Notes under the pieces: generated by a model | Database searches by the model: none | The model's input: only the letters and a program-made list of their open reading frames with translations | What the model was told of the DNA's origin: nothing | Part shown: piece by piece, positions 28,016 through 60,488 of the stretch | Numbering within the stretch: the first letter of the stretch is position 1 | Layout of the letters: each line of letters opens with the position of its first letter | DNA from: an uncultured Phycisphaerales bacterium | GTDB lineage: Bacteria; Planctomycetota; Phycisphaerae; Tepidisphaerales; Tepidisphaeraceae | DNA: 64,000 bases | Direction of reading: 5' to 3' | Assembly (NCBI GenBank): GCA_963758525.1 | Contig: CAVWVQ010000003.1 | Coordinates: 2,592,001 to 2,656,000, forward strand | Position numbers and translations under genes: made by a program

Positions 28016-28017
28016 CG

Positions 28018-29439: not shown

Positions 29440-29440
29440 T

Positions 29441-30199: not shown

Positions 30200-30215
30200 A
30201 CAAGAGAAAAAAGCC

Positions 30216-34391: not shown

Positions 34392-34449
34392 CCACTGACG
34401 ACTTGACGGCGGCCGCCTTACGCAACGCACCGGGGATTTTCGATGTAGA

Positions 34450-34854: not shown

Positions 34855-34878
34855 TCTCGCAGCGTTCCCCCCACATGA

Positions 34879-41077: not shown

Positions 41078-44000
41078 TCATCCATCTAGAAGTTCGCCTT
41101 CTTTCTTGGATCGGTCGATTTCCATATTCGCGTGCTTCACGAGTGACTCAAAAAACCCGCGTTCCGGAGCGCCGATGGGAAGGGATCGAACCAACTCGTC
41201 GCAGCGTTCCTTCAATGCGAGGTCCGCGGGGAATGGCTCGCCAAGTCTTCCCTGTCTGCCGCCACACGTCACAGCCGCATAAAGGTAGTCGCTTACGTTA
41301 CGGAAGCACTCTTCGCCCAATGTCGAAGCATTCTTCAAGAGTTCCATGACCCACTTGGCGTGTGCGAAAAAAGTGTTCTGCCCAGCCTTTCGAAAGAGCG
41401 GCGGAATCCGTTACGGTCGTGGTATCATGAGCACGCGACATTGCGGCGAGCAACTCCATCGAGGCTGGTGTCGTAAAATGCGCGGACATTCCCTCAAATA
41501 TATCGCCAAGTCTATGCCGCGCCCGACCATCGGCCGAGCCGAATGCCTGCGCGACCCTTCGGAGCAGTTCAGGAGCTCGCTCGTGTCCGGACATGCCATT
41601 TACTGCTTGCCCTATTTGAAATGGAACTGCTTCGTAACCAGATGATGCAGCACCGCTATCTTCTTTTTCCATTCGAGCGAAAAGCAAATCGAGCACTGTT
41701 TCGGGCATTCGCAGAGAAAGGAAGTTGAGAAACTCCAGAACCCAGTGGTCATTAATGGCAGGCACCTCGATCAGTTTTTCTGTAAGGAGGCAAAGCTGCG
41801 AATCGGTTGCCACACTCATCGGCCCTTTCTCAGTTCCATTTCCAATAAGCCACAGAAAGAGATCGTTGCACACCTCGGGCTCGCCATCGAGCTTTGCCGC
41901 AAGCGCGACTGCAAGCGCGCCGCATGGGTTGGAATCCCGCAGCGAGGCCATGGTTCTGAAGGCCGCGCGGCGGACGGCTCCATCTGGGTCTCGCACCAGC
42001 TCATGCACCAGTTTTGTTTCGGAGTCCGTGAGGCCGGTACGGGCGCGTGCAGACAAATACACCGCAGCGCCGCATCTTAGGGCCGGAGAGGCCGCCCCAG
42101 CTGCGGTCTGTGCTATCTCGAACGATTCGGTCAGGTGCTCAGCTTTCGCATGGATAAGCAGGGCCGTTAGGTGCGTTCCAACTTCCTCCAGTCCTGGTTT
42201 GATGGCGCGACGAGCCAAACTCAGTGCAAACTCTGGGTTGATCTGACCGAGAGTGCACAGAAATCGCTCGATCTGAGGTTGGATACCGCACCGCTGCAAC
42301 TCCTGAATTGCGCCAACGATCGTCGTGATAGCGGCGTCAACCGAGGGGTTTGTTGTCAAGAACTCGTTGACGAGACGGCCTCGCCGCTCTTCACGACGCT
42401 GCTGGGCTCGTTCGAATCTAGCTGAGGGATTGACTTGGCTTTCATCATCGGCGTCCTCCGTCTCGTCCCAAACATTGGTATGCCGAAGCTCTCGCAAAAG
42501 CCGAAAGGAATAGTCATCGGGAACGGATTGGATAATTCGCCTGGCGGTCTCGGCGGTGGCTCGGTTGCCGTTGTCTTCGCAATCGACCGAAACTGGTCGG
42601 TGAAGAACAGCGAAGGGCAGCAAAGCATCAATAACCACGAGCTTAACAACCGCGCTTTGATCGGATGCAGCGATGCTCGCCAAGATTTCCATCGCCTCGT
42701 TCCGTTCTCCATCCCATTGCGCATAAAAGTCGTCGGGCATCTGGAGACCCAATGGCATGGCGATGCCTGCCAGAAGATGGGTCAGACTCTGGATGACTCG
42801 AAGAACGATCCGAGGCTGGCGATTTTGAGCAAGCTTCCGGAGAAGTTCGACGGCGCGACGCCGAACGTCGGCTGTATTCTTCAGGTCTACCCCAAATGGT
42901 TCCATCGTGTTCTCGCACCGGTCGATCGGTGGGAAATCCCAGTACGCTCCAGAATTGGATCCAGCACGTCGAGCGGAGAATGCGGGTGCCTTTCTACGTC
43001 TGCATCGTTCATCCACTTTTCAATTGCGTTAAGCGTTTCAGCTTGGACTGCCACAGGCTTGTCCAAATCGTACTCGGCAATATCGAGCAAAATGCGCATT
43101 CCGTGTCCCGGATTGGGATTCGTCGCGCGCGAATCATCTCTCCCAAGTATCCATAGAATATCCAGACAACGAGGCAGGTAATCCAGATGGAACGCGATCT
43201 GCTTTAGGATTGAAGGGAGATGGTCCATTACCCTCGAATGAGAAGAGCGCAAAGCGAAGTATTCGGCAAACGCACCCGATTCGGGCACGGTCGATGGATT
43301 TGCTATCGCGTACTCAATGAGACCGAACGTGCGCTCGGGCTGCAGATGGGCGACGTCTCTGAGTGAATCCAGAAGACGCCCGCGTCCGACATGTGATGCC
43401 GATTCGAAGTTTGCCCTGATTTTCCGCCACACATTGTCGAGGATGGTGTCAGCTCCGGGCGTGGTGGATCGCAATCGCCAGTCAAGTTCGGCCAAGTTCG
43501 TGAGCACGGCACCGCTGAAGGGTTGATGGAACGCATCAAACACGGAATCAGCGTATCCTGTCGACATCCCGCCGGCCGCAACACTAGCACTATGTAGCAG
43601 ATGGTCCGCTAGCACATCCGGGACGATTCGCGCCGTGCCGCCTCGACGAATTAGCACGCCAGCCGCTTCAAGTTGTCCGAGTATCCTCGCCACATCCACC
43701 GCTGACGCACGGAGAAATTGCGCCATCATACGATGCACGTCGGTATTGCCCGCGGGTAGCGGTTGCAATGCAGCAACGAGCGGGAGTAGTTTCCGCGCAA
43801 TCTCGGCGTCATTGCCGGACGTGAAACCTGCGCTGGCTTCTTCAGCAAACCGGTCGAGCACCAGTCTCTGGAACTCCTCATGGCGCTCCAGAAGTCGGGG
43901 ATCCACTGCCTCCCTTCGAAGAAAGTATGCGGCGACTATGAGCACGAGAGGTGAGTCGCCCACCGCACCTGCAAGTGCTTCGGCATGGTTTGCATGTGAG

Positions 44001-45175
44001 GGTCCAAGCGCGTCCTTTGCCAACTGAAGTAACTGCTTCCGATCGAGGCGCGTAAGACCCGCAGGAAGCACGGTCATTTGGGAAAGGTTTGCCCACGAAA
44101 TGTCTGCCCGCAACTGACGAACTGCATATGGCCTGGTGATCAATATAAGTTTCGTGCGCCCGGGCCGATGTTTGGTGAGACTGAGTAGGGCACGAACATC
44201 GTTCCGTCTGTGCGCATCCTCCGCAATGATAACGCAGCTGCCCACCGGCAGCTCGCGGGCAGAAGTGGGGGTGAGCTGCACGCCGTCAGTCACGACACGC
44301 GCATGCCAGTCCGAGTGTCGCTCCGGGAATTTGTGCGCGAATCCCCAGACCAGACGAGATTTTCCGCTGCCTCCGACCCCGCTGAGGACGAGGACTTGCT
44401 GGTCTGCCGATTCGACAAAGGCATCCAACTCCGTGAGCTCCCGACTTCGGCCAATCAGCGGCAATGCATGATGAAAGGCACGATCAGGATTTAGAAGTTC
44501 ACGGTAAAAGAGGCCCGGCGACATAAAGGTGGGGATTACCTTGACACCCAAAAAGTCCTCCGCCCATTGCGCACCAAAATGTGAAGCAATTAATGCACGC
44601 ACGTCTTCAGCATCCATCTTCCTGATGCGCAGGACGACATCCGTCGCGTCGAGTAACTTCCATTTCCGATGTCTCTTGATCTCATCGCGAATGGGAGTGC
44701 CGACGGTACAAGCGACGATGATCGTATGGTGGGATGCGTCATAGGCGTCCTCCGCGATGGTTTGTTGTACATCAGCCTTGGTGAACCGTTTGTATTGACG
44801 GCACTGGTACGTGCCTTCGCGACCACCCGGAAGCTTGGCGACAAGATCAATGCCCTTCTGCTCGCTGCCACGCGTTCCGTACCGATGACAGTCCTTCACT
44901 TTGGGTAAAAGGCTGACAAAGTGATGCGCGAACTCCTCAAATCGCTCCCAGCCGAAATTCGGGTCAAGAAGAGGAAGAAGGGTGGGCGTGGGCTTCGCCG
45001 CCGCACCAAGAGTTGCGTGCCGGCCTGCTTTTTTCATAACCTTCTGGCTTCTTTGAACAGAATGGGCCGGGCTCTTCTTCCCACGTGAAGTGGCCACAGC
45101 AGTCTTTTTCCGCCGTGATGTTGCTTTTCGTTGCCGACTTCGGGAGCCTGGGAGATGGGCGCGTTTTTTTGCCAT
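41078..45175 (-). CDS. Restriction-endonuclease-fused STAND-like NTPase, about 1365 aa (frameshifts near 42915 and 41390)
   Basis: N-terminal WERFEEF..GSEQKGIDL..YQCR (PD-(D/E)xK type); Walker A SGVGGSGKSRL; Walker B IIAEDAH; long helical C-terminus. Confidence 0.75.
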
Positions 45176-45394
45176 TTTTAGTGCCTCCGACACCGGACGA
45201 CGTCACCAACAATGAAATTGCATCGGTCGCTAGCGCGAGTTTACAAGTTATTCGCGGTTGTGCCGAAAACCGCGGGTTTTTGGGGGTAAATCTGTATGAC
45301 CTACCTCTGGCCCTGAGAGGACCTCACAACAGCGGTTTTCTCGACGTTTACAGACATTCCTGGCATTTTTTCGTCCGTAACTTGTAAACTCGCG

Positions 45395-46450
45395 CTAGCC
45401 GGCGGCGGGGCAGGGATACGGTCCGGGGCCGATGCTACCGACGATCCGGTGGTAAAGCTTCTTCCGCAGATCTTCCGGCGATTTCCAAAGCACATGATTG
45501 AGCTGTACCGTATCGAAGTGGGCCGAGCCAAAGTGTTCTTCATGGCAAGTATGGATGACTGGGATTTTCAGACCACGCGCAAATCCAGCTTCGAAATAGA
45601 CGCCGTTCCGGTTGCCCGTGAAGTCCGCGACGACAAAGGGCGCGAGGCGGATGTCGCCCAGAATCTTGTCCATTATCCAATCGTTATGCTCCGCGAGGTC
45701 GACCCGTGTTGCGCGATACCCCGCCTGTTCAATTGCCGGCTGAATCGCCTGCTGGAAGGCCGCGTCCATGCTCTTTCTTTCGTCACTGCCGCCAAACCAC
45801 ATTGCCACGAAGACCGGGTTCTGTGGGGCGCTGGTGCCACCAGTCAGTTTCTCGAAGTGTGCCCAGCCCTCAGGCGTCAGCGTAACCTCATACCCCAGAC
45901 TGTTTGACTGCATGCCCACGAAACCGTAATCACTCAGCGCAGTCAGGTTGTAGTCGATCTCACGGGGCAACTCTGCGAACGCAATTGCGGTGTCATCCCG
46001 CCTCAGGTCTATCCGATACCCTCCCGTCGGCGAAATGCTTGCTAAGTTGCACAACGTACGATCAATCCGCTCCGGCACGGTGCGCGGCCATCGTCCCATC
46101 AATTCCTCCAAGGCAACGGGGGCGAGATCTGTGCGTTGAAGTGGACCATATGGCTCCATTCCATACTGAAGCCAGAATCGAGGCAGTGGCCGGATGGATT
46201 GCTCGCGTAGTAACGGGGAAAGATGACCGGCATTCCATCGACCCCGCAAACGCTCGCTTCGCAAGTTAACGTCGTCATGCTCGGTCACAACAAACTCCCC
46301 GCACGCTGAGCAACACACCAAGCTCGCGTCAGCGCTGTGGGCACGGTCTTCCATCGTCAGTTCGAAAGTAAACGGGACGGCAGACCCGATGCGTGTCATC
46401 GTGCAGTCTGCTCGCAGGCACACAGGACAACTGGAATCTGAAGATCTCAC
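45395..46450 (-). CDS. Zn-ribbon/wHTH protein with C-terminal nucleoside 2-deoxyribosyltransferase (TIR-like) domain
   Basis: CPVC..CSACGEF; LTPEGW; VFVAMWF..IRLAPFVVADFTGNRNGVYFEAGFARGLKIPVI. Confidence 0.75.
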   Translation of the reverse strand: MRSSDSSCPVCLRADCTMTRIGSAVPFTFELTMEDRAHSADASLVCCSACGEFVVTEHDDVNLRSERLRGRWNAGHLSPLLREQSIRPLPRFWLQYGMEPYGPLQRTDLAPVALEELMGRWPRTVPERIDRTLCNLASISPTGGYRIDLRRDDTAIAFAELPREIDYNLTALSDYGFVGMQSNSLGYEVTLTPEGWAHFEKLTGGTSAPQNPVFVAMWFGGSDERKSMDAAFQQAIQPAIEQAGYRATRVDLAEHNDWIMDKILGDIRLAPFVVADFTGNRNGVYFEAGFARGLKIPVIHTCHEEHFGSAHFDTVQLNHVLWKSPEDLRKKLYHRIVGSIGPGPYPCPAAG

Positions 46451-46544
46451 GATTTACTCCGAGGTTGAGGTGGACGATCAACATTGCTACTGCGTTCGTT
46501 TACAGTCAGATGATTCTATCCCACGCTTCTATTTCGAGACGCGT

Positions 46545-47537
46545 TCATTCCCTCGGTGGACCGTAGTTCCGCCGGATGCGCGGGCGGTAGGGGGCCGTGG
46601 TCCCTTCGCCCGTCGCCACTTTCGGGAACACTTGGAGATGCACGACCACCTCGTCGTTCCATACCAGTGACGCCGCCGCCAGATCGCTTTCTTCCATCCG
46701 CCATTCCTTGCCGTCGCCGGGCGGATTGAAACCTTCCCACTTGCCGGCAATGGCACGGTCCAGCACCGCGCGGATCACCTGCCCCTCATCTGATCCCGGC
46801 TGCGCCGGATCAACTGGCGCTGCGAGCAGGTCGATTGCGTAACTGTCCACCAACGATTCCCAGAAATACTGGAGCGTGGTGTGACGGTCGAAGAGATCGA
46901 GCCCCTGGAACTTGCCGCCGTGAAGGACAGCCACGCCCACAGCGTCAGTCGGCAGTTGCAGGCTGCCGCGGAAGGCGCGGAGATCTGTCTCCCGCTTCGC
47001 ATATGCATCGCTCAACGCGCTGGTCGGGCTGCTGGAACCGGATGCTTCCAGAGATTGTGCCACTTCATTCCAGACCGCCCCCTGGTCGGCATCGTGCCGG
47101 CCGTCAGACTTGAGGTTCTGGTGCACGCGGGAGAGCTTTGCAGACCGCGTGCGATGGCTGGCGGACCTGCCGCTGGAGAATGACGGGCTGGCGTGACTCC
47201 AACGTCCCTGCTCGACACAGCTGACGGGAATCTTCAAGGTAGCCTGGGCGGGAACCAGCACATCGGTGTTGAGAATGCGGTTCTGCTTGGCCCCGACAAG
47301 TTCCTGGCCGTCCATGAGGAACACCCGCACGTCGAGCTTATTCTCCACTTGCAGCTCCGGTACGCTGCCGCTCTGGCTGATCTCCGTGATTACCACGCTG
47401 GCCAGCGTCTCCTGGCGCAGCAGCTCATACGGCGGCTGATCATGGGAACGGCCGAGTATTGGGACGAACTTGAGCTTCTGGCCCTGGCTGTGATCTGCTG
47501 AAACGGTTCTGGCACGGTGAATAATTGCCTCTGGCAT
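46545..47537 (-). CDS. ARPP-1/DUF6569 family protein
   Basis: ITEISQSGSVPELQVEN..FLMDGQELVGAKQNRILN, IPVSCVEQGRW, DQGAVWNEV. Confidence 0.85.
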   Translation of the reverse strand: MPEAIIHRARTVSADHSQGQKLKFVPILGRSHDQPPYELLRQETLASVVITEISQSGSVPELQVENKLDVRVFLMDGQELVGAKQNRILNTDVLVPAQATLKIPVSCVEQGRWSHASPSFSSGRSASHRTRSAKLSRVHQNLKSDGRHDADQGAVWNEVAQSLEASGSSSPTSALSDAYAKRETDLRAFRGSLQLPTDAVGVAVLHGGKFQGLDLFDRHTTLQYFWESLVDSYAIDLLAAPVDPAQPGSDEGQVIRAVLDRAIAGKWEGFNPPGDGKEWRMEESDLAAASLVWNDEVVVHLQVFPKVATGEGTTAPYRPRIRRNYGPPRE

Positions 47538-47576
47538 TGCGGCTCCTTTTTTGTGGCCCCCCCTTCAATAACAGAT

Positions 47577-47644
47577 GCTCCTGACAGCAGTGTGTCAGTG
47601 GGCTCTGCAAAGAAGTTTGGCGAATCCGTTTTGAGCGTTACATT
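47577..47644. promoter_or_regulatory. TGACA-N6-TGTCA box plus rightward sigma70-like promoter
   Basis: TGACAgcagtgTGTCA (47582-47597); TTGGCG-16 nt-TACATT. Confidence 0.65.
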
Positions 47645-47746
47645 TCGCTCACGGCTTATCGCGACCGAGGACAGCAGACCCGTTGGTGAGGGAGTCGAAC
47701 GGATTCGAGAACCCTGTGGGCAGCTGGTGGGCGAATCGAGGATGCT

Positions 47747-49357
47747 GTGATATTTCCCACGGATTGGATCAAGCAGGCCATCCTCCACCCCGAGCAGGCA
47801 GTCCGAGCGACCGCATTGCTGTACTTCACCGAGTCATTCAGCGATGACCCTGCGGTGATGCCGTTCGTGATCCAGGCGGTCGAACGATACGGCAAAGAAA
47901 CCTCCTTTGATCTGCTCCGTCACGCCGAATGGCTGTGCCAGACTCCGGCGACCGTTGATTGGCTCATCGGCCAGCTTCGCTGTGAGCTCGACACCACAGA
48001 CATCAACGAGGACAACCTGCGCTTTGCCCTCGCACTCATCCTGTGCCACGCCGAACCGCAACTGCTGGCCCACCGTTACGGCGAGATTATCGCTTCCCCT
48101 GCTTTTCCCGAGTCGCTCAGGGAACCGCTGCGTGAGTGTCTGAAAATGGAATTCTCCGACTGGCTGACGCTATGGAAGATGTTTGAGGAACTCGCCCGGC
48201 AGACGATGGAGAATCAGAGACTGTCGAGGGCCGACTACCACCGATATCACCGCATAATGCGGGCGCTGGCCCGCCACACAGCCGCGGACGCGGACTTGGT
48301 GCTGTCATTGTTGCGCGATTACCGAGGTCACGACCAGGCACTGGTGGTGTGGTTGGAGCCGTGTATCGTTGAACTTGCCGGGCGATTGCGGCTGGTCGAT
48401 GCGATCCCACTGATCCTTGAGCGAATCGACGCCGACACGGATGCCGTGGTGGACGAGATCAGCAACGCCCTCATCCGGATCGGGGGCGATGCCGTGGTAA
48501 CCGCCGTCATCAAGAGATGGCCTTCGGCCCGCACGAACTCCCGATACATACTGGCTGAGGCTCTGCAACACATCCACACAGATACGGCCCATAAACATCT
48601 GCTTGACTGCTTGAAAGCGCCTGACGATTGTGATCTGGAAATCTACATCACCAACTGTGCACTGGGGCACTTCAGCCAGCGAGCCAACGAGGCGGCACGG
48701 CAACTGTTGCTCGAATTCGGCGAGGAGGAACTGAGTGGCGAGCATTGGGATTTACGTTACCACCTGATTGCCGCCGCCACATTGATGGAGGAATCTTTCC
48801 CAGAATATGAGGCGTGGCATGAGGAGGCGGTGAGAAGCAACTACGGCAGGACGAAGCTCAGGCAGGACAAGCCCAGGCGATTGGCCGATGCCTTCACGGG
48901 AGACGAGGAAGCACCCTCACCTTCGAGCGGCGGCAGGAGCAGCAGTGTGCCTGCAAAACCGAGGCGCAAATTGGAGGTCCAAAGATCCAGTAGCGGTTGC
49001 GGCGACAATGCTGCGCCCACAAACCAGAACGAATCCGTCAGCACGATCTCTGTCTCGGCCGACCAACTCTGGAAAGATTTCCAGGAGAACGAAGTCGCGG
49101 CCAACATGAGATACAAGGGGAAAACCGTAAGGGTCGAAGGAAGCGTCGCAGCTATCAAGGTCAAATCCGGCAGGCCCCACATTTACCTGCGGAGTGAATA
49201 TGATGGCGTAGACTGCGCATTCACGGATTCTGACAATGCTGATCTGGCGAGGTTGAGCAAGGGCAGCCTTGTTGCCGTTCAAGGTGACTGCACGGGCATG
49301 GTTTACGGGATCGTGGTGGCGCTGGACAATTGTCGATTGATTCAGGGAAGTTCATGA
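47747..49357 (+). CDS. HEAT-repeat protein fused to a C-terminal OB-fold (tRNA_anti-like) domain
   Basis: ILHPEQAVRATALLYF, AIPLIL..ALIRIGGDAVV; C-terminal SADQLWKDFQENEVAANMRYKGKTVRVEG..GSLVAVQGDCTG. Confidence 0.7.
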   Translation: MIFPTDWIKQAILHPEQAVRATALLYFTESFSDDPAVMPFVIQAVERYGKETSFDLLRHAEWLCQTPATVDWLIGQLRCELDTTDINEDNLRFALALILCHAEPQLLAHRYGEIIASPAFPESLREPLRECLKMEFSDWLTLWKMFEELARQTMENQRLSRADYHRYHRIMRALARHTAADADLVLSLLRDYRGHDQALVVWLEPCIVELAGRLRLVDAIPLILERIDADTDAVVDEISNALIRIGGDAVVTAVIKRWPSARTNSRYILAEALQHIHTDTAHKHLLDCLKAPDDCDLEIYITNCALGHFSQRANEAARQLLLEFGEEELSGEHWDLRYHLIAAATLMEESFPEYEAWHEEAVRSNYGRTKLRQDKPRRLADAFTGDEEAPSPSSGGRSSSVPAKPRRKLEVQRSSSGCGDNAAPTNQNESVSTISVSADQLWKDFQENEVAANMRYKGKTVRVEGSVAAIKVKSGRPHIYLRSEYDGVDCAFTDSDNADLARLSKGSLVAVQGDCTGMVYGIVVALDNCRLIQGSS

Positions 49358-49457
49358 ACTGCTGCGGATGGCCAGGACCATCGCCGCACTGTGGTGCCCC
49401 ATGCCTCCCGCCACGCCTGAGGGCTTTTGCCACGACGCTGCTGGTAAACGAGCACAC

Positions 49458-49526
49458 GCTCCTGACAGCATTGTGTCAGCGACGCTCCCAGCAAATTTTG
49501 GCGAAACAGTTTTTCACCGTTAGGAT
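49458..49526. promoter_or_regulatory. TGACA-N6-TGTCA box plus sigma70-like promoter of the WYL gene
   Basis: TGACAgcattgTGTCA (49463-49478); TTGGCG-17 nt-TAGGAT. Confidence 0.7.
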
Positions 49527-49557
49527 GCCGCTTACCACTGACACAGGGGTGCTCGCG

Positions 49558-50598
49558 ATGGCTGCGGACTACTCTCGGATTCACCGGCTGCTCAAGATCC
49601 TCATGCTCATCCAGGGGCAGAAAGATTGGACCGCCAAGCGCCTGGCGCTGGAATGTCACACCACCGAGCGAAGCATCTACCGTGATCTCAAGATGCTGCA
49701 GGGAGCGGGCGTGCCGTATTTCTTTGACAAGGAGAATGGCGGATACGCCGTGCAGAGGGACTTCTTCATGCCGGCGGTGGCTCTCACCCTTGAAGAGTCC
49801 CTGGCCCTGGTGGCGCTGGCCGAGCAAGTAGGGGGGCGCGAGCAGGTGCCATTCACCAAGGCGGCCGCCAAGGCAATCGCCAAGATCCGCTGCAACCTGC
49901 CGCCGAAGGTGCAGCAGGAGCTGCAGAAGATCGACGATCTGGTCGCTATTCACCTCTCACCCGTGAATCCACCGGAGGGCACGGAAGATGTCTACGAGGT
50001 GGTGCGGGCGGCGCTGGCCAACCGCAAGACGCTGGAATGCAGCTACGACTCAATCGGCGCGAGTCAGAAGGGGGTTGATGGCAATGGCGGTGTGAAAGAG
50101 ATCTTTTTGTTCAGGCCGTACACGCTGCTGTTCAGCCAGCGGGCCTGGTACGCGCTGGGGCACCACGATGGCAGAGGTGCCGTGCGGTGTCTGAAGCTGA
50201 ACCGCTTCACACGCTGCAAATCTACCGAGATTCTTTATGACATTCCCAAGAGCTTTGCGGTCGGCAAACATCTGGGCAATGCGTGGCGGATGATCCGGGG
50301 GAGCAAGTCATACGATGTCGAGTTGCGGTTCGATGCCGAGTTCGCCGAGACCATTGCCGACACGCACTGGCACGCAACGCAGGAAGTGATCTGGAACGAC
50401 GACGAGTCAATCACGTTCTGGTGCGAAGTAGACGGTTTGGACGAAATCGTGTGGTGGATCCTGGGGATGGGCCCGCACTGCGTGGTGAAGAAGCCGGCGG
50501 AGTTGGCGAGCCAGGTCAGTGGTCTGGCCGCGGCGATCGTCAAGCAGTACGACGCGAAGCCCTCCAGCAAGCCCCGCAAAAAGATAACTTCACTGTGA
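49558..50598 (+). CDS. wHTH-WYL-WCX transcriptional regulator (YafY/PafBC-like)
   Basis: RIHRLLKIL..LALECHTTERSIYRDLKML; PYTLLFSQRAWYALG..RCLKLNRF; EIVWWILGMG. Confidence 0.92.
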   Translation: MAADYSRIHRLLKILMLIQGQKDWTAKRLALECHTTERSIYRDLKMLQGAGVPYFFDKENGGYAVQRDFFMPAVALTLEESLALVALAEQVGGREQVPFTKAAAKAIAKIRCNLPPKVQQELQKIDDLVAIHLSPVNPPEGTEDVYEVVRAALANRKTLECSYDSIGASQKGVDGNGGVKEIFLFRPYTLLFSQRAWYALGHHDGRGAVRCLKLNRFTRCKSTEILYDIPKSFAVGKHLGNAWRMIRGSKSYDVELRFDAEFAETIADTHWHATQEVIWNDDESITFWCEVDGLDEIVWWILGMGPHCVVKKPAELASQVSGLAAAIVKQYDAKPSSKPRKKITSL

Positions 50599-50662
50599 CG
50601 CGGTGCTGTCAGAGAGCCGCGGCACCGTGCTGCTGGAACATAGAATTAGGCAAGGAAGCCTC

Positions 50663-51170: not shown

Positions 51171-51557
51171 ATGACCCGAATTCCCGATGAAGTGATCCGC
51201 CGCTTTGCGTACAAACGCCATCTGCCACTCGGGGATGCAAGAGGTGTCTTTTCGGACTTGGAGGACTTCCTTGATGCGGCGTCACGCCGCAAGATGGTCC
51301 CGTCCGTGGCCGTTGATGCAGCTTGGCACGAGTTCATTCTTCACACACGGCAGTACGCACAATTTTGTCAAGACCGTTACGGCTGCATGGTCCATCACGT
51401 CCCGACTTCTCCGTGCTCTCTCAACAATGTGGGCGAGATCACAGAAGATTCAACTGCCGGGAACGTTGAATGCGATTCGGATTGTGCTTCTGACAGTCCA
51501 AGCTCACCAATGGAATCGTCATCGTTGAGAACGCGATTGGTCGAAACTGCTAGATAG
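51171..51557 (+). CDS. GRDP-like (glycine-rich-domain/TIGR04222-like) small protein
   Basis: VPSVAVDAAWHEFILHTRQYAQFC..YG.MVHHVP motif. Confidence 0.7.
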   Translation: MTRIPDEVIRRFAYKRHLPLGDARGVFSDLEDFLDAASRRKMVPSVAVDAAWHEFILHTRQYAQFCQDRYGCMVHHVPTSPCSLNNVGEITEDSTAGNVECDSDCASDSPSSPMESSSLRTRLVETAR

Positions 51558-51691: not shown

Positions 51692-52816
51692 TCAGCTGCT
51701 TGGCTGAGCCGGGAGTGCCTTTTGTTGAATCCTTCTGAACAGGTGCAGCAGAGCAGTGAGGGCAGGGGATCGCTCAAACTCATGTGCGCGGTAAAGCATA
51801 CCCATCGGGATGCGAATCTTCTGCAGCTCCTTCGTCAGCAGTCCCTTGCTCAGCTTGCCTTCCGTCTTTAGCGGTGGGTCGTACGATGGCGGCCTTGCAG
51901 CGTGGGCCCAATCCACGAAACTCTTTGTCGCCAGCATCAATGCCGGATCGGGTTGAAATCGCAACACCTGAACCTGGTTCATACTGTCATGTATCTTTGG
52001 CCTTCTCAATGTGAGACGCTCACAACGATCAGAGCCGAGCGACTCGACCAACCACGACCGCGTCACGCCGGGAAGTGGCATATAGGCTAGCCATTGCTCT
52101 ATTTCAACAGGACCTACCGTTAATCCGATCTTCGAAACCAAGGCCGCATTGAGGAGTACAGCCATCTGTTCCTCCCCGATCTTTTCGAAATGAAACCCCT
52201 CCGGAATTCCGACAAGCTCTCCGTTCGTTTCGACGAAAGGCGATAAGAAGCAATCGCAAGTACTAAACTCTGCCTTCACGGCTCCAAAGACATGCCGCGA
52301 GTGGACGGGAGTGATTCGAACCTCCAACTCCGGATTTAACCGCGTGAGATGATACCGAAGGTCCGCCGCGAGACGCAGCATCATGTGCACTGATCCAATT
52401 TCCACCCGCGGCTTCACCTTCGAGGATTGCTCTTCGATTTGCTTCTGAAAGAGCCGTAGGTGTTCCGCTGCCCACCGAGCAAAATGTTCCCCGACAACGG
52501 TTAGCTCGTAAGGTTGTCCGCTACGTCGCTGTTCGGCGACCGTTACCTCCGTATTTAACACCTCCGACAGGAGTCTGGACAGCTTAGTGACACGCCATCG
52601 GACAGATGACGGATCGATGTTCAGCAACACACCTAACTCGCGGGGCGTTTTATTCAGATATAAGTGAGAGGCCAACAGAAGATCGGCGACATCCATCGTC
52701 CCCAGTTTTTCCAAAGCAATCAGGTTCAAGTCGGCCGCCATCGAAGGCCGTTCCGTCGCTGGCGACGTTGGTTCCACAGCCAAGGTCCGCGACGATTTCC
52801 GCACCCGATTTCTCAT
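51692..52816 (-). CDS. Divergent LysR-family transcriptional regulator (start may be 52741)
   Basis: N-terminal HTH (LLNIDPSSVRWRVTKLS..RRSGQPYELTVVGEHF), LNPELEVRI; divergent from the operon. Confidence 0.6.
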   Translation of the reverse strand: MRNRVRKSSRTLAVEPTSPATERPSMAADLNLIALEKLGTMDVADLLLASHLYLNKTPRELGVLLNIDPSSVRWRVTKLSRLLSEVLNTEVTVAEQRRSGQPYELTVVGEHFARWAAEHLRLFQKQIEEQSSKVKPRVEIGSVHMMLRLAADLRYHLTRLNPELEVRITPVHSRHVFGAVKAEFSTCDCFLSPFVETNGELVGIPEGFHFEKIGEEQMAVLLNAALVSKIGLTVGPVEIEQWLAYMPLPGVTRSWLVESLGSDRCERLTLRRPKIHDSMNQVQVLRFQPDPALMLATKSFVDWAHAARPPSYDPPLKTEGKLSKGLLTKELQKIRIPMGMLYRAHEFERSPALTALLHLFRRIQQKALPAQPSS

Positions 52817-53071
52817 CCCCGGGGATTGTATGCCGTGTCGGCGGGTCGCGCAAGCAGGAATTACCTACTGAATTAAAGATTACTCTGTGTATTTTGTGTT
52901 CGCAAGGTTTATTCTGCGGGGGCCGTCAGCGAGAGGAGGCCCTTGATGTCGCTGGATCGAATGCGTGTAAATTCGCCTGAAGTTTCCCAGACACAGAGGG
53001 ACAGCTCCACCCACCGGTGGTCCCAGTACACGTTGGTGCCGCTCGCTCTTTCGTCGTTCAGAGTTTTTGGC

Positions 53072-53905
53072 ATGAGTACTCCATCCACGATCGACATCAA
53101 GGCCCCGATGTTGTTCCACGACGGATCATCACCGCCGACCGCTGTAGTTGTTTTCGATGCGTTCCGGTGTTCGTCCACGCTCCTGGCTTGCTTCGCTCGC
53201 GGATTGCACGCGGCGGTATTGTCGGAGAAGGGCCAGTCGGCGGCCGGTACGACGATCGGTAAGGCGGAGCAACTAGCACAAGAGCTGAAATGCAAATTAA
53301 TCCTCGGCGGCGAACTGCATGGGCGTGCCGTCAGCGGAGGTGTTGTCGGCAACTCACCGATCGAGTCCTGCACAGCAATTCTTGACGACAGAAAGCTTCT
53401 GCATTTTCAGTCTACTAACTTTGCCCGGTCGTTCAACAAGATCACGGACTACGTACATCAGCAGCGGGAGGGTTTGGTGGAGATATTCGTCATTAGCTAT
53501 GCGAACGCCGCCATCACAGCACAACTAATTCAGAGTTCTGGATACGAACGCATCATCGCTGTTTGTGGTGGTTTCTTCGATTGCATGGCCATCGAAGATA
53601 TGACGCTCGGTGGCAGGTTCATTAGCGAGCTCGGGATCGACGACGGGGATCTCGATGACGATTCGCTGGCGATGCTTGCGTGCTACCGTGCTCTAAATCC
53701 GACGCCTGCCCTTGTGGGTGGGGGTTGGGCAGGACGAGTTCTCCGGCACATTGGTAAAGCCGAGGACATCTGGGACGTCATCGGCACGTCGCGGTTGCCA
53801 CAGCATCAACGCCGCCGCATGTCGAACTTAATCTTGCAGGTTAGATGGATTCACGGCACCCCGATGATTCAAGCGGTGGCCAGTCAACTCCTAACGAGAG
53901 TGTAG
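53072..53905 (+). CDS. 2-phosphosulfolactate phosphatase (ComB)-like protein
   Basis: VVVFDAFRCSST, LGGELHG..GNSP, STN, SYANA, IEDMTLGG. Confidence 0.75.
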   Translation: MSTPSTIDIKAPMLFHDGSSPPTAVVVFDAFRCSSTLLACFARGLHAAVLSEKGQSAAGTTIGKAEQLAQELKCKLILGGELHGRAVSGGVVGNSPIESCTAILDDRKLLHFQSTNFARSFNKITDYVHQQREGLVEIFVISYANAAITAQLIQSSGYERIIAVCGGFFDCMAIEDMTLGGRFISELGIDDGDLDDDSLAMLACYRALNPTPALVGGGWAGRVLRHIGKAEDIWDVIGTSRLPQHQRRRMSNLILQVRWIHGTPMIQAVASQLLTRV

Positions 53906-53907
53906 AG

Positions 53908-54321
53908 ATGAATTGCTTCATCATCAAGAAGTCCTTCCACTTTCACGCGGCCCACCGCAACGAAGATCTTTCTAACGATAGATGCTTCTCAATTCACGGT
54001 CATACGTACCACGTAGACTGTCACTTCGCTTTCACAAAAGCCGACTCCCACAGTGTCACGATGCTATTTTCTGATATTGAGAAGCAGGTACTCCCGGTGC
54101 TGGCTCCATTCGAGCACAGCTTCATCGTGAATCGGGTAGACCCCCTATATACGGTGTTGAGGGACCAAGGCATTAAACTCTGTGTCCTCGATCATCCCTC
54201 ATCTGCGGAAAATCTCGCACAACTATTCTTCGATCGAATACGGGCGAACACTGAGCTGAACCTAGTTCGGTTAGACCTTCAGGAGACGGAGAGTTCTGTC
54301 GTTTCCTATTGTGGTTCCTAG
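53908..54321 (+). CDS. queD: 6-carboxy-tetrahydropterin synthase (QueD/PTPS-I family)
   Basis: FHAAH, CFSIHGHTY (CxxxHGH), EHSF, PSSAENLA, LQET. Confidence 0.85.
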   Translation: MNCFIIKKSFHFHAAHRNEDLSNDRCFSIHGHTYHVDCHFAFTKADSHSVTMLFSDIEKQVLPVLAPFEHSFIVNRVDPLYTVLRDQGIKLCVLDHPSSAENLAQLFFDRIRANTELNLVRLDLQETESSVVSYCGS

Positions 54322-54928
54322 GTACAGCAGGCCGAAGGACGTGGCCGAAATGAATCCTCTTTTGCTGATACCGAAGTGGTTGTACATGGCACGCAAACAT
54401 GGCGTGCCGAAGCCGGAGGCGTTCTGCTTGAGCACCATCACAAGGGCGGGAATGCCGTCTTCGCGGATGATGTTGGTAACCGAATGTCTTGACGGGGAGC
54501 TAATCTTTTGCACTGACTGTCGGAGCAATAAGGGTCAAAACATATCTGATAATCCCGCGGCGGCGGCGTTGCTCTATTGGCAGCCAATTAGTCGCCAAGT
54601 GCGGCTCGAAGGAACGATCGAACCCGCACAGGATTCACTTGCAGACGCAGATTTCAATAGAAAAACGGCTGGTCAGCGGTTGATCATTTCGCTGGGCATC
54701 CAGAGCAGCACGCTGCGTCGCTACCGCCGTCTTGCTTTTGACGTTTCTGACAAGCTGTCAGTGATGGCGGACGGTGCTCAGCTGACTAGGCCGTGGTACT
54801 GGAAGGCATATCGCCTGCGAGCTTCACGCGTCGAATTTTTCCGTGGCGGCTCGCATCGGCTGAATCGTCGGCTCTCGTTCCTATTAGATGAGCGCGGCCG
54901 ATGGAAAGCTCAACGTCTATATCCCTAG
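54311..54928 (+). CDS. Pyridoxamine 5'-phosphate oxidase (PdxH/PhzG)-like FMN protein, divergent
   Basis: PEAFCLST..GMPSSRMML, SNKGQNISDNP, YW..RQVRLEG, RPWYW, VEFF, RLYP. Confidence 0.8.
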   Translation: MVPRYSRPKDVAEMNPLLLIPKWLYMARKHGVPKPEAFCLSTITRAGMPSSRMMLVTECLDGELIFCTDCRSNKGQNISDNPAAAALLYWQPISRQVRLEGTIEPAQDSLADADFNRKTAGQRLIISLGIQSSTLRRYRRLAFDVSDKLSVMADGAQLTRPWYWKAYRLRASRVEFFRGGSHRLNRRLSFLLDERGRWKAQRLYP

Positions 54929-54963
54929 CCACCGATAAGGTAACGGCCATCCATCAGGAGTTT

Positions 54964-55935
54964 ATGATCGACGCTGTCCAGTTAATCTCGCACGCGGTGT
55001 TTGATCTGCCAGACGCCGGTGACACGGTCGCAATCCTTTGCCATTTCAACCCGTGCCTCTACATATCACCCGTCCGGAATCTCGCAGCCACCCTCGATTG
55101 GCTTTTGGCGGAAGAACTTCCCACGTATGCAATCGAGCTGAGGTGCGGTCATAGCGTATCTGCACCACCCGTCTTACCAGTTGGCCATCGGAAGGTGCTT
55201 CAACTTACCAGCGACTCCTGGATGTTCGTGAAAGATAATCTTTGGAATGTTCTTGCGAAAAATCTACCGGCTCACTTCTCGAACATAATCTGCGTCGACG
55301 CTGACGTGAGCTTGAGGACACGGGGTTGGAAAAAGACCTTAGCAGATCGCTTAGGGTCATTTCCAGTCGTTCAGCCGTTTAGCCGCGGGGTTTGGCTTGA
55401 TTCCATTGGCAATGTGTTCAAAGAGAAATACTCGTGCGGTTATGCGGCCAACTGCGGCCTCCCGACGCCGCATCTGTCAAAGGAATATCACTGCGGATTT
55501 GCGGTCGCCGTGCGGCGAGATTTCTGGGCGGAGACCGGCGGCTTTTTCAATAGCCCGGTTGGGGGTGGGTCGTTGTTCCTTATGTCAGCTACGCTCGGCG
55601 TAGAAAATGAACTCGAGCCGATCCTTTCCAGTGCAGCTCCAGCGTTTGCTCGCCAGTACCGGGAGTGGGCTGACCGAGTTAGATGTTGGTCCCACCAAAG
55701 GCTGGGGCACGTGGACGGCGATGCTTACCACCTTTGGCACGGATCCCGGGCCAAGCGTCGCTACTTTGACAGATTTGAACTACTCAGCGGCTTCGATCCA
55801 TTCACGGATGTCGAAAGTAAGCCGTCGGGACTCCACGAATGGAGCCCAGTGGCTCGGACGACTAAGCAGACTATGTTGCGGAGAATTGAGGACTACTTCA
55901 AAGAACGCGAGGAAGACGAGCACGTCGTTCCCTGA
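54964..55935 (+). CDS. Putative GT-A glycosyltransferase
   Basis: HFNP, KDNLWN, VDAD (DxD), VVQPF, GFAVAVRR..GGF, HLWHG. Confidence 0.6.
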   Translation: MIDAVQLISHAVFDLPDAGDTVAILCHFNPCLYISPVRNLAATLDWLLAEELPTYAIELRCGHSVSAPPVLPVGHRKVLQLTSDSWMFVKDNLWNVLAKNLPAHFSNIICVDADVSLRTRGWKKTLADRLGSFPVVQPFSRGVWLDSIGNVFKEKYSCGYAANCGLPTPHLSKEYHCGFAVAVRRDFWAETGGFFNSPVGGGSLFLMSATLGVENELEPILSSAAPAFARQYREWADRVRCWSHQRLGHVDGDAYHLWHGSRAKRRYFDRFELLSGFDPFTDVESKPSGLHEWSPVARTTKQTMLRRIEDYFKEREEDEHVVP

Positions 55936-56403
55936 GACCACGGCACGGTCAGGGAAGCTATCGCATTCCATTTGTTATCTGGAGGCACCGGGAAGGCCAC
56001 CCTACCAGCCCGGCCGATCCCGACCGGGGTCTTCTTCTTTGGCGATACATTGAGACTTGCGTAGTCGAATTCCCCCTGGCCTCCGGATCGGCCATCGACT
56101 ACTGGACTGCTACCCTGTTCGCCGGAGTTTCGGCTCATCGATCCCCAGCGGCTGGGTCGGGCGAAGGTCCAGCCAGGCCCGAGCCATCGCAGACAGCCGT
56201 GCCGTAGCTGACATTCGCCTCTGCTCGTGATACGGCTGCGTCAGCCAAGGCAGATTCGGTCGTCAGGGTACCTCGGAGATTCTTGGACGCGCGCCGGATC
56301 AATCGCCAATAAACTCCGAATTATCGGGAACCCGGTTTCACTTCCAACGTCTAACCCTCCGTTCCAAGTCTCCGAACCAAGCTCGCACTGAAAGGGCTCG
56401 ATC

Positions 56404-59400
56404 ATGTTCGCACCTCGCGTGACGGCGTCTTGTTTGGCCCTTGCACTGGTTGTCGCGGGATTGCTCCTGGCGGATGAGCCGGGCAACGCACCCGGGCCGA
56501 AGGATCCGTGTTATCTTGGGCATGTTTCCACGGACAAACCGATCTATCGACCGGGAGAACGGGTCTGGCTGCGCGGCGTCGTCCTGGGGGCGCTGGATCA
56601 CAAGCCCTTGCCGGAGGGACAATCAGCTGATGCCGTTTTGCAGATCACCGGCCCCAGGGGGGAGCAGCTTTTCACGACAAATGGGCAGATTCAAGAGAGC
56701 GTGGCGGGGTTCGCCTGGGATGTGCCTGCCGACGCGGCTGGCGGGCAATATGCGGCCGTCGTCAGTTTTCCCTATAGCGGGTTCCCACCGGCAAAACGCA
56801 TTTTTGACGTGCGAGCCTATCGCGCTCCGCGGCTCAAGGGTGAGATTATCTTCCTTCGCGATGGATTCGGGCCGGGCGACATGGTCAGAGCATCGCTCCA
56901 TGTTGAGCGCGCCGAAGGCGGCCTGCCCGCCGGGGCAAAAGTGTCGGCAACCGCCATCGTCGATGGCCAAGACGCGTACTCGGGCCAGACGGTCATTGAT
57001 CCGGCCGGGAATTGCTCGGTTGCGTTTACGCTGCCGGCCCGGATCGAGCGCGGCGACGGGACGCTCTCGCTGGCGGTAGCCGATGGCGGCGTGGTCGAGC
57101 CGATCGCCAAGACGATCCCAATTCTGCTGAAGAGCGTTGATCTGGCGATCTATCCCGAGGGAGGCGATCTGGTCGCCGGGTTGCCTTGCAGGGTCTATGT
57201 CGAAGCGCGCACCACCGCGCAGAAGCCGGCGGACCTGGTGGGACAGGTGATCGATTCGCATGGCAACGCCGTGGTCGATTTTGCTACCGAGCATGAGGGG
57301 CGCGGCCGATTTATCCTCACCCCCAAAACCGGTGAGAGCTATGCGATCAAGCTTTCGCAGCCCTCGGGCATCACCAGGATCTACCCGCTCCCCGCGGCCA
57401 AGACCGAGGGCGTCGTGCTGCTGGCGTTGGACGATATGACCCGGGGCGGCGAGCCGATCCGACTCAACATCGCGGGGACCGCCGCCGGATCATACGATGT
57501 CAGCCTTTCCAAACGGCAGACGGAAGTGGCGTCCGCCCCCGTCAAACTGCTGCCCGGCGTGGCCGCGCAAGTGGTTCTCACGCCGCCTTCATGGGCGGAC
57601 GGCGTGCTGGTCGCGACCGTAAAGACCGCCGACGGCACTCCCATCAGTGAACGGCTGATCTTCCGCCAAAGCGCCCGGGCCATCCACGTGAAGGTGACAG
57701 CGGATCGACCTTCCTTCACGCCCGCCGACCAGGTGAACATCAGCGTCACCACCACGGACGACGCCGGAAAGCCGGTGCCGGCGGTCGTTGGCGTCACCGC
57801 CACCGACGAAGCCGTACTGCGCATCCCAGAAAAGCGCGATCGCGCCCCGCGGCTGGGGGCGATGGTGCTCCTGGGAAATGACGTGCGTGACCTGGCCGAC
57901 GCCGGGGCCTATCTCGACCGGGCTGATTCCAAGGCACCGCTGGCAACCGATTTGCTTCTTGGGACGCAGGGATGGCGCAGGTTCGCGACGGTCGATGCGA
58001 AAAAGTTCATCGCCGCCTACGGCGATCCCGCCCGGCGCGCCTGGGAGATCTGCTGCCGCCGCAACCGATGTTCTGGAATGTTGCCGGTGGCCGGGGCGGA
58101 GGCGGTCGGTTCTTTGCAGTGACCGCCGCCCGGGCTCCTGGGCCGATGGTACGTGAGCAGAACGCGGCGGAAGACGCAAAGCTCAACGATCGCGCTGCAG
58201 AGAACAGGCCGCCTGCCGCCCCCGCGATGGTCGACCAGTCGCAAGCCGGGCAACAGGTAAGGAAGGACCTGCAATTGCAGCCGGCGGCTGACATGCCGGC
58301 GACACAGCCGGCAGCAATGCCGATTGCGATGCCGCCGCCGCTTCCCGTCGTTCGCATCTATGCCCACGATCTCCAGCCCAATCGATCCAGCAGCGATCGC
58401 ACCGATTTCACCGAGACACTGTACTGGGCCGCCGGCGTAAAGACCGACGAAAAGACCGGGACGGCAACACTCTCCTTCCATCTCAATGACTCGGTCACCA
58501 GCTTTGCCATTACCGCCGACGCATTCGATGCTTCGGGAGCACTGGGCGAAGGCAAGACGATCATCACCTCCTCTAAGCCGTTCTACGTTGAGCCCAAACT
58601 GCCGCTGGAAGTGAGCGTCGGCGATCTGATTCACCTCCCGATCGCGGCCGTCAATAACACGCGGAGCAATCTGGATCGCGTCCGTCTCACTCTCAACGGC
58701 GGAGCCGGGCTGAGCATCTCTCCGATCCAGGAGTTTGATCTTCCGGCTGGCCAGCGCGTGCGGCAATTGGTTGATCTGCGCGTTGGCGCTGCGCCGGGAA
58801 CCACAAAGGTCGTTGTCGATGCCCGCGCCGGCGACTTTACCGATCAGGTAACGCGCACGCTGGCCATCGTGCCGCTGGGATTCCCGACAGAAATCAACAA
58901 GGGCGGGCTGGTCAGCTCCGCCGGCAGCGTGGTCGACGAAATCCAGGTTCCCCAGTCTGTGGTGGCGGGAAGCATGAAAACCTCGGCCGCCCTCTACCCC
59001 ACTCCATTGGCCAATCTCACCGAGGCGTTGCAGGGGCTGTTGCAGGGGCCAAACGGCTGCTTCGAGCAGACCACCTCGACCAACTATCCGCTGGTCATGG
59101 CCGACCAATATTTCACGACCCATGCCGGGGTCGACCCATCGCTCATCGCCCACAGCAACGATCTGCTGGATAAGGGATACGCGCGACTGACCAGTTTTCA
59201 GTGCAAGAACAAGGGGTATGAATGGTTCGGCGAAGACCCCGGACACGAATGCCTGACGGCGTACGGGCTGCTTGAGTTCACCGATATGTCCGCCGTTCGC
59301 AGCGTCGATCCCGCGATGCTTCAGAACACACGCACCTGGCTGCTGGCCCGACGTGACGGCAAGGGAGGCTTCACCCACGAACGGCGTGCCCTGCATACCT

Positions 59401-60488
59401 GGGTCACCGATCCCGACTGTGCCAACGGCTATTGCACATGGGCCCTGCTCGAAACCGGCCAGAGCGGCCTCGATACAGAGGTGAAGTGGCTCGCGGAGCA
59501 CGCACAAACCGATCCCAACAGCTATGTCAAAGCCCTGGCCGCCAGCTCCCTGTACCTCGCCGGCGACAAGGCCGGTGCGCGGCAGTTCATGGATCGGCTG
59601 GCCGACCTGCAGGATAAAGACGGCCACGTTCGCGGAGCAGTCACCACCGTCGTCGGCAGCGGCGGAGACAGCCTGGAAATCGAAACCACCTCGTTGGCGA
59701 CACTGGCGTGGCTGCGCGAGCCGGCGTACGCCGCACATGTCGAGTCGGCCATCCGCTACCTGGCCGACTCCTGCAAAGCCGGACGATACGGCTCGACGCA
59801 ATCGACCGTGCTGGCGCTGCGCGCGATCATCGCCTATGACAAAGCCCGCGCCCATCCGACCGCCGCCGGCAAAGTGCTGCTTTTTGTCGATCATCAAGGC
59901 GTGGGCGAAGCGATCACCTTTGACGCCAGTTCCACCGGCGCGATCAAGCTCCCCGACTTCTCAGCGCAGATGACGCCCGGCGAACACGCTGTCGAATTGC
60001 GCATGACCGACGGCTCCAGTCTTCCGGACGCCGTCACGGTGTCATTCAACAGCGTGACGCCCGTCTCTTCCAAGGGGTGCCCACTGACGATGACCACGGC
60101 GCTTGCCGATCCGCAGGTGGCCGAAGGAGCGCCCACCGAGGCGCGGGTGACGATCACCAACCGGTCGGTCGCGACGCTCCCCACTCCGATCGCGATCGTC
60201 GGCCTGCCCGGCGGCCTGGAAGTGCGGCACGATCAACTCAAGGAACTGGTGAAAGCCGGCCGCATCGCCGCCTACGACGTGCGCGGCCGGGAGGTGATCC
60301 TGTATTGGCGTGACATTCAGTCCAAGCAGACCATCGAGGTCCCGCTCAGCCTGACCGCTGCCATCCCCGGTGAATACACCGGCCCGGCCAGCCGTGCGTA
60401 CCTGTATTACTGCGATGAATTCAAGCAATGGCTGCCGGGAATGAAAGTCACCATCATGGCCAAGGCCTCGCAAGCCCAGCGGGGATGA
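56404..60488 (+). CDS. Alpha-2-macroglobulin family (MG2/TED) protein (frameshift near 58040)
   Basis: Signal peptide, STDKPIYRPGE, YPEGGDLVAG, DLLLGTQGWRRF, RTDFTETLYW, thioester GCFEQ, AYLYY. Confidence 0.9.

Follow-up and report, generated by a model that had tools for sequence, protein, structure and literature searches.

The 64,000-nucleotide stretch of DNA analyzed here (the window), from an uncultured Phycisphaerales bacterium, carries towards its 3' end four enzyme genes that are probably a real, rare, orphan biosynthetic cassette whose members travel together, and a variant of the pterin-tailoring clusters. The genes encode a ComB-like phosphatase, a QueD-like enzyme, a PdxH-like flavin mononucleotide (FMN) oxidase, and a GT-A-fold glycosyltransferase (GT). 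By open reading frame (ORF) calls they share one orientation, touch or overlap one another, and diverge from a LysR-like gene. We consider the chances about even that this is a rare mobile cassette that draws on the host's dihydroneopterin triphosphate (H2NTP) to make an oxidized, glycosylated pterin; the set probably co-travels in other uncultured microbes. The features of the locus are as follows.

51692..52816, minus strand: atypical LysR-like regulator (ORF call, ESM Atlas); the real start is perhaps the ATG at 52741.
52817..52945: A+T-rich divergent intergenic region, with a Shine-Dalgarno sequence, GAGGAGG, at 52933-52939 (from sequence).
52946..53905, plus strand: divergent phosphatase of the ComB family (2-phosphosulfolactate phosphatase fold), 319 residues (PF04029, motifs, profile matches).
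53908..54321, plus strand: T-fold enzyme of the QueD/PTPS-I (type I 6-pyruvoyltetrahydropterin synthase) kind with a Cx3HGH motif, 137 residues (PF01242, motif residues).
54311..54928, plus strand: FMN oxidase of the PdxH/PhzG fold with a changed substrate site; start at GTG 54311 or ATG 54350.
54901..55935, plus strand: GT-A-fold glycosyltransferase (AlphaFold, Foldseek, VIA); start at 54901 or ATG 54964.
56016..56039, plus strand: terminator-like hairpin and T-run 3' of the GT gene (consensus scan).
51171..51557, plus strand: 128-residue ORF with a D-x-x-W-H motif, convergent on the LysR-like gene; in the low-G+C block, membership uncertain.

An earlier, sequence-only reading had described four close or overlapping co-oriented genes divergent from an atypical LysR gene, and the locus bears this out: all five ORFs are intact, the ComB-like and QueD-like genes are 2 nt apart, the QueD-like and PdxH-like genes overlap by 11 nt if the GTG at 54311 is used, and the PdxH-like and GT genes overlap by 28 nt if the GT starts at 54901. 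The GAGGAGG lies 6 nt ahead of the ComB-like ATG (52946), and the N-terminal stretch of the ComB-like protein is common to its relatives. A consensus scan found no sigma-70 site in 52817..52945. Terminator-like sites in the scan numbered 8 against a shuffle mean of 5.6, and the hairpin at 56016 is by itself weak evidence. Judged from the gene layout, the LysR-like protein would regulate the operon.

The lower G+C content that the same reading had remarked on was also confirmed. The block has 54.3% G+C against a genome mean of 60.7% (sd 1.7), a value matched by only 2 of 1521 equal-size genome windows (fraction 0.0013), and is foreign to its host by composition; further stretches of the window are also depressed, at 54-56%. 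A DNA search of five same-family genomes did not find the block, its sole matches being a short repeat and the WYL gene upstream of the block; in one genome (G401) the WYL gene and its small neighbor are followed by an unrelated gene. The block sits 27 kb downstream of a tRNA-Ser and integrase, and a 16-nt copy of the tRNA-Ser 3' end occurs 150 kb further on (G000:C3:2766305; E 0.31), which makes a large island of about 150 kb around the block possible.

The host genome (G000; 6.47 Mb, 91% complete, 6% contamination) contains four PTPS-family genes: a canonical QueD with H25 and D54, one of Cx5HGH type, one of Ex2HGH type, and the cassette copy. Its only queE-like gene found lies about 2 kb from the canonical queD, on another contig than the cassette. 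Elsewhere it holds queC, queF, one tgt, pdxJ, and two folE genes, with two ComB-family genes in all. The usual partners of these enzymes are thus absent from the window, as the sequence-only reading had said, but most of them (folE twice, queC, pdxJ, queE, queF, tgt) are present in the genome; comA was not found. Because they are extra copies beside canonical genes, the QueD-like and ComB-like enzymes would be free of housekeeping duty, and because the host holds two folE genes the precursor H2NTP would be available to the cassette.

The family calls made earlier for all four enzymes hold, by Pfam matches for three and by AlphaFold, Foldseek, and VIA for the GT; the ComB-, QueD-, and PdxH-like proteins all fall below the NCBIfam equivalog cut-offs. 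The QueD-like enzyme matched PF01242 (E 2e-22) and scored 57.1 bits against TIGR03367, for which the cut-off is 89.25. It has the Cx3HGH motif that defines QueD/PTPS-I (as given in PMC9894224), together with the zinc ligands (an N-terminal histidine among them), the catalytic cysteine, and the pterin-binding glutamates. Residues H16, C26, H30, H32, H70, E101, and E126 are invariant across 20 relatives, and the equivalents of E. coli H25 and D54 are D24 and L53. Miles, in 2014, reportedly found that the H25/D54 pair of E. coli QueD is needed for the retro-aldol step.

The same change is general among viral relatives. In the best 80 of 430 viral QueD loci (IMG/VR, L101-L180), which share 40-45% identity with the QueD-like enzyme in the best loci (range 36-45%), the D54 position is leucine in 79 and isoleucine in one, and none of the 80 has histidine or aspartate where E. 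coli QueD has the H25/D54 pair. Their neighbors include QueE-like (78/80), FolE (76/80), TGT/DpdA-like (70/80), and QueC (32/80) genes. Because QueE-like, FolE, and TGT/DpdA-like genes adjoin them, it is implied that viral QueDs without D54 make 6-carboxytetrahydropterin (CPH4); loss of the pair may then not block CPH4 formation, and the subfamily is probably able to make it. The loss had been considered as proof of a tetrahydrobiopterin-type PTPS, an idea rejected since it is common to all 80 viral relatives, 78 of them beside QueE-like genes. Identity with QueD2, suggested by the only PDB match (7v0f), was also rejected: the motif is Cx3HGH rather than Cx4HGH, there is no Cys18 equivalent, and the protein has 137 residues.

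In a tree of 53 rows, the QueD-like enzyme forms a clade with P0195 (67% identity) and P0045 (54%) with support of 98/99; in P0115, another close relative, the N-terminal half lies in another frame (a frameshifted call or a pseudogene). The subfamily without D54 also occurs in four other genomes of the phylum, paired with folE in three, and each genome also holds a D54-bearing Cx3HGH copy, so that a role as sole QueD elsewhere was discarded. A folE and D54-less queD pair is conserved in three genomes of one genus (L199, L200, L202) that already have two other PTPS genes. Among the viruses, an uncultured phage group combines FolE (often with an extra N-terminal domain), D54-less QueD, and QueE-like and TGT/DpdA-like genes near terminase; a 111-residue protein (phrog_17812) is present in 30 of the 80 viral loci and a GT-B glycosyltransferase in 17.

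The PdxH-like protein matched PF01243 and PF10590. It scored 133 bits against TIGR00558 (cut-off 180) and 131.7 bits against the PhzG model NF038138 (cut-off 270), barely passed the broader PRK05679 subfamily cut-off (129.7 versus 129), and is about equidistant from the PdxH and PhzG hidden Markov models (HMMs). Its best PDB matches were the PhzG structures 1t9m, 1ty9, and 4hms (94.6 bits, versus 78.9 for human PNPO). Nine of the 11 FMN contacts listed in PMC4556617, mapped by motif and without direct alignment to yeast Pdx3, are retained (R52, L55, K74, Q131, S132, E175, R183, R187, P205), whereas the pyridoxine phosphate (PNP) oxidase motif of the same source, EFWxxxxxRxHxR, reads EFFxxxxxRxNxR. 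Relative to family-level PdxH, the changes are K to T57, Y to D114, R to K118, S to Q122, W to F177, and H to N185; at T57, D114, K118, and Q122 all three family-level PdxH proteins carry K, Y, R, and S or A. We take these K/Y/R/S positions, from E. coli structures, to be the residues that hold the phosphate of pyridoxal phosphate. PhzG enzymes, the closest structural relatives, bind FMN but not PNP, and the sequence suggests that the PdxH-like protein probably works as a flavin oxidase on a ring that bears no phosphate. PF03284 (phzA/B) was unmatched in the host genome, and control genomes gave no match either. The proposal that a native pdxH had moved into the island was dropped, as identity to the relatives' pdxH is only 30-33% and the gene order around pdxH varies among three relatives. 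The idea of divergent paralogs recruited into a new pathway is upheld: the cassette QueD and ComB come on top of canonical genes, and substrate residues known from PNP oxidase are gone from the PdxH-like protein.

The substrates of ComB-family enzymes are 2-phospho hydroxy-acids. The ComB-like protein matched PF04029 above its cut-off (73 bits, E 2e-20) and scored under every ComB equivalog cut-off (best 46 versus 330 bits); its profile matches in the PDB were 2z0j, 2yyv, and 1vr0, with the catalytic motifs aligned. Eleven relatives at 34-50% identity retain the DxxR[CS]SxT, GE, GNxP, xxTxF, and ExxxxxG motifs, and identity to the host comB is 26% over 146 columns. By these sequence comparisons it is a distinct subfamily with conserved catalytic motifs. 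The host comA was not found in the 91%-complete genome by a search that gave matches in 3 of 14 control genomes; with no ComA partner found and an equivalog score too low, the sequence places the enzyme outside the coenzyme M pathway.

The GT had no Pfam match. Its AlphaFold model (predicted local distance difference test score 91) has a GT-A fold, and Foldseek and VIA returned GT-A proteins exclusively (VIA best Z 13.5, root-mean-square deviation 3.6, 205 aligned residues), the top matches being tied among many GT2/GT7-type enzymes. Besides the fold it has the DxD motif of GT-A enzymes, as DAD (D133-A-D135), and a C-terminal metal histidine in an HLWHG motif, H277 and H280 being near-invariant. 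BgluT and CtPGT were absent from the fold matches listed, and no direct comparison with them was run. A close clade comprises 11 relatives at 49-58% identity; 14 further proteins are distant (24-31%). Viruses are the source of most distant relatives, whose genes occur among the core genes of giant viruses or the structural genes of phages. On Burkholderia/Cupriavidus plasmids (L181:8037-9889, L183:7995-9701) the gene after a distant GT relative encodes a conserved coiled-coil protein that carries the motif DxxLWLYxLTDLP.

From these assignments we infer every reaction of the following scheme, their order, and the product. Once the LysR-like protein turned the operon on, host FolE would supply H2NTP, from which the QueD-like enzyme would form a reduced pterin: CPH4 or, as the H25/D54 pair is missing, a sepiapterin- or 6-pyruvoyl-type intermediate with its side chain kept. 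The QueD route runs through a sepiapterin-like intermediate to CPH4, which oxidizes to 6-carboxypterin (PMC9894224). The PhzG-like FMN enzyme would oxidize the reduced pyrazine ring as PhzG does the reduced phenazine ring, an analogy based on PhzG crystals that bind reduced phenazine dicarboxylates. The GT would then add a sugar. If the QueD-like enzyme stopped with the side chain still in place, the acceptor would be a hydroxyl on that chain; if it went on to CPH4, the sugar would be attached to the carboxyl group or to a nitrogen of the ring. The ComB-like enzyme would strip phosphate from neopterin phosphate or from the sugar adduct, the least constrained step. In favor of this pterin scheme are the operon-like packing with its terminator-like hairpin and the fact that the cassette has no QueE to carry CPH4 to a deazapurine. 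A stronger claim, which we hold only tentatively, is that this is a new kind of pathway, in which QueD is uncoupled from QueE, a PdxH/PhzG-fold enzyme serves as a dedicated tetrahydropterin oxidase, a ComB-fold enzyme removes phosphate from a pterin phosphate or a sugar phosphate, and the ring is glycosylated by a GT-A enzyme of a virus-related family; the result would be a new pterin glycoside acting as a signal, photoprotectant, or antimetabolite, with mobile islands carrying the pathway from one uncultured bacterium to another.

Outside the host genome the cassette is known only from metagenome proteins, and it is rare, since no second locus turned up in genome, metagenome, viral, or plasmid scans. 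Among 401 genomes of the phylum, 16 had a GT match and only the host's was close (543 bits, next 139); the ComB-like protein was found in 1 of 301 class genomes, the host itself. The neighborhood search proposed in the sequence-only reading gave no second four-gene set, but recurrence of queD, pdxH, and GT received indirect support from two sources. The QueD-like protein P0049 (62% identity; an 87-residue piece of the P0195 cluster) and the GT P0004 (57%) each have 3,998 bp as the length of their longest contig; in a simulation with 26 GT/ComB lengths, the chance of such a match was 0.008 with the 4 closest QueD proteins and 0.038 with all 18. In addition, the first codons of the GT in the window overlap the PdxH-like C-terminus, W-x3-R-L-x-P-stop, and the same C-terminus can be read in an overlapping frame across the beginning of 4 of 12 other GT sequences (P0003, P0027, P0004, P0008), or 3 of 10 when counted by cluster representatives; P0012, which is N-truncated, was left out, and relatives with a downstream called start cannot show the overlap. 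Shuffled sequences gave a mean of 0.24, with 1 of 400 shuffles reaching 3, and the motif was possible in 3 of 185 other proteins and 30 of 974 long genome ORFs. From these sequence signals, queD-pdxH-GT very probably recurs elsewhere; that all four genes recur together we favor only slightly, the ComB and LysR links being seen in this genome alone. A test for a ComB-to-QueD overlap found the QueD N-terminal motif absent from 12 ComB C-termini.

Several results weigh against the pterin cassette as described. The GT had no relatives in genome contigs of GTDB (14 pattern matches), no close ones in 61 loci from JGI metagenomes (all 24-32%), none and then one distant relative in two scans of IMG/VR, and five at 26-27% in unrelated contexts on plasmids. 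The ComB-like protein gave one distant match in GTDB and none in IMG/VR or plasmids. Of 96 candidates in the search for PdxH-like proteins, the query itself was the sole match; this search was insensitive, because canonical PdxH at about 31% was also missed. Five decoy orders of the C-terminal motif that begin with W scored 2/10, so that the true order is separated by one overlap case only, which appears to be P0004, the same record as the 3,998-bp match. None of 13 ComB contig sizes matched a GT or QueD contig, and for this reason ComB may not be a fixed member of the cassette. On the chemical side, elimination of the triphosphate is already part of the QueD reaction and leaves the phosphatase no obvious substrate downstream, the side chain of CPH4 offers no hydroxyl for a sugar, and the cassette contains neither sugar-nucleotide nor export genes. 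Finally, the contexts of the distant GT relatives point, by analogy, to protein or glycan acceptors.

Of the rival explanations, the one closest in chemistry is a deazapurine glycoside, in which an extra QueD raises CPH4, host QueE and QueC turn it into 7-carboxy-7-deazaguanine (CDG) and 7-cyano-7-deazaguanine (preQ0), and the cassette tailors a 7-deazapurine base or nucleotide in a huimycin-like manner. The genes that adjoin the nearest D54-less viral QueDs, QueC among them, are those of this chemistry, the host has queE, queC, and queF, and a nucleotide intermediate would suit a phosphatase. The nucleoside glycosyltransferase AvpGT is among the top GT folds (Z 12.5), but is tied there with many unrelated GT2 enzymes. 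Known clusters of this kind retain their preQ0/CDG core genes, whereas the cassette has no queE, queC, or folE, and an oxidase, a phosphatase, and pyridoxamine go unmentioned in the main text of the work describing them (bioRxiv 10.64898/2026.04.15.718813); we regard this explanation as unlikely. A looser view, less probable again, takes the locus as a cofactor backup or mosaic in which each gene does a near-canonical job without a joint product, the PdxH-like protein replacing a missing host pdxH. No canonical pdxH was found in the host genome, where the cassette gene is the only full-length PdxH-fold gene found alongside pdxJ, although pdxH scored above cut-off in 19 of 41 genomes searched, including both same-genus genomes; the protein just passes PRK05679, and the confinement of the ComB and LysR links to one genome would also fit. 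The altered phosphate and ring residues and the low identity to the relatives' pdxH speak against replacement, however, and since the genome is 91% complete the assembly perhaps lacks a real pdxH. The cassette QueD and ComB duplicate canonical genes, and that three genes recur in order, on indirect evidence, speaks for selection acting on them as a set.

The viral character of the GT relatives, near structural genes, and the presence of GpgS among the GT-A matches (Z 9.4) would also suit a glycoside or glycan other than a pterin, with the GT and the ComB-like enzyme acting as a synthase/phosphatase pair on a phosphorylated hydroxy-acid, the kind of substrate named above for the ComB family, or on a cell-surface or protein acceptor, while a redox cofactor would come from the pterin and flavin enzymes. 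This we consider quite improbable: the indirect links join the GT to the PdxH-like and QueD-like proteins and not to ComB, and the cassette has no pterin-dependent enzyme. Least probable of the four is a module for phage defense or DNA modification, with the task of producing a modified base or putting it in place. The neighborhood invites it, with a WYL regulator, a TIR-like effector, a STAND/Mrr protein, and the tRNA-Ser integrase element, as do the many viral relatives of both QueD and GT. PADLOC, however, matched none of the 6 cassette-block proteins, tblastn with a viral DpdA-like query (E 0.01) found no DpdA-like gene in the genome, which has a single canonical tgt, the cassette contains no DNA-binding or nuclease part, and control by LysR fits a metabolite pathway. 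The nucleotide-modifying defense module suggested by the sequence-only reading thus found little support, and a glycosylated pterin is the reading we prefer.

The regulator was assigned to LysR by ESM Atlas only, where the first matches were LysR/HTH_1 (score 0.98, 215 of 256 features in common); it had no Pfam or NCBIfam HMM match at E 0.1 and none among plasmids. The adjacent 128-residue ORF (52% G+C) reads DAAWHEFILHT followed by a Cys/Ser/Asp-rich tail, and is presumably akin to bacterial GRDP/DUF1399-like proteins. It had no Pfam or PHROG match; weak relatives occur on 123 plasmid records, and the single neighborhood examined was unrelated. Upstream, 24167-35400 holds an integrated element with the tRNA-Ser, a tyrosine integrase, a primase-like protein, and a family-A DNA polymerase, and 41298-50598 a defense-like cluster with an Mrr-like/STAND NTPase split over two ORFs, ARPP-1, a HEAT and OB-fold protein, the WYL regulator, and a TIR-like/NDT effector (PADLOC PDLC00733) flanked by a perfect 22-nt inverted repeat at 45229/45378. 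A near-palindrome, TGAC-N-TGTCAG, recurs around the WYL gene (47572-47598, 49453-49479, and, found by eye, about 50592-50612) and is a candidate WYL operator; a WYL-operator regular expression gave no site in the window and missed this near-palindrome. Downstream, an alpha-2-macroglobulin gene occupies two overlapping frames (56404-60488), probably through a sequencing indel or frameshift.

Pterins are increasingly recognized as bacterial signals and pigments, and in some of their pathways steps such as the phosphatase still lack an assigned enzyme (PMC13259868). Because it depends only on host FolE, the 3-kb cassette can be tested whole in E. coli. A product, if one forms, would be a new glycoside of a pterin or deazapurine. 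It would give activities to one subfamily of ComB, to an offshoot of PdxH/PhzG, and to a GT-A family that is common among giant viruses and phages, and would reveal whether QueD enzymes without H25/D54 still make CPH4; if the pathway is indeed of a new kind, three uncharacterized subfamilies would gain their first functions at once.

No published description of the comB-like, queD, pdxH, and GT combination was found in a search that did not extend to subscription papers and supplements, and by sequence the cassette is outside PdxH, PhzG, QueD2, the coenzyme M pathway, and Dpd. PhzG and PdxH share the fold of the cassette oxidase, which keeps most FMN contacts; in contrast to them, it scores under both equivalog cut-offs, has asparagine for histidine in RxHxR, and has no phenazine genes alongside. 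Known pterin glycoside pathways use a Cx5HGH PTPS-II, or hydroxymethylpterin and a reductase, with a GT-B-type transferase, whereas the cassette has a Cx3HGH enzyme, an oxidase rather than a reductase, a GT-A fold, and a ComB-fold phosphatase. A GTP-derived pterin, a PTPS-family enzyme, and a glycosyltransferase are nevertheless common to both, as in cyanobacterial biopterin glucoside and cyanopterin and the Chlorobium pteridine glycosyltransferase (PMC5683033). The 7-deazapurine glycoside clusters of huimycin and dapiramicin likewise share a QueD-type entry enzyme and a tailoring glycosyltransferase, but they keep methyltransferases as well as the preQ0/CDG core genes (bioRxiv 10.64898/2026.04.15.718813), where the cassette instead adds an FMN oxidase and a phosphatase. 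With phage 7-deazaguanine DNA modification (FolE-QueD-QueE-QueC-DpdA, as outlined in PMC10516641) the cassette shares a QueD of the same sequence subfamily as the 80 viral loci, and differs in having no FolE, QueE, QueC, or DpdA of its own. The pepteridine island of Photorhabdus (plu2792-2799) has, like the cassette, its own PTPS homolog and regulator and draws on host pterin metabolism. It further contains GTP cyclohydrolase I, a pteridine reductase, a pyrophosphokinase, and an acylating nonribosomal peptide synthetase/E2 fusion, and the available portion of its description (PMC5384830) names no GT, ComB, or PdxH-like gene. As a precedent for an island-borne pterin pathway with its own PTPS, it supports the reading of the present locus as a mobile cassette for a tailored pterin.

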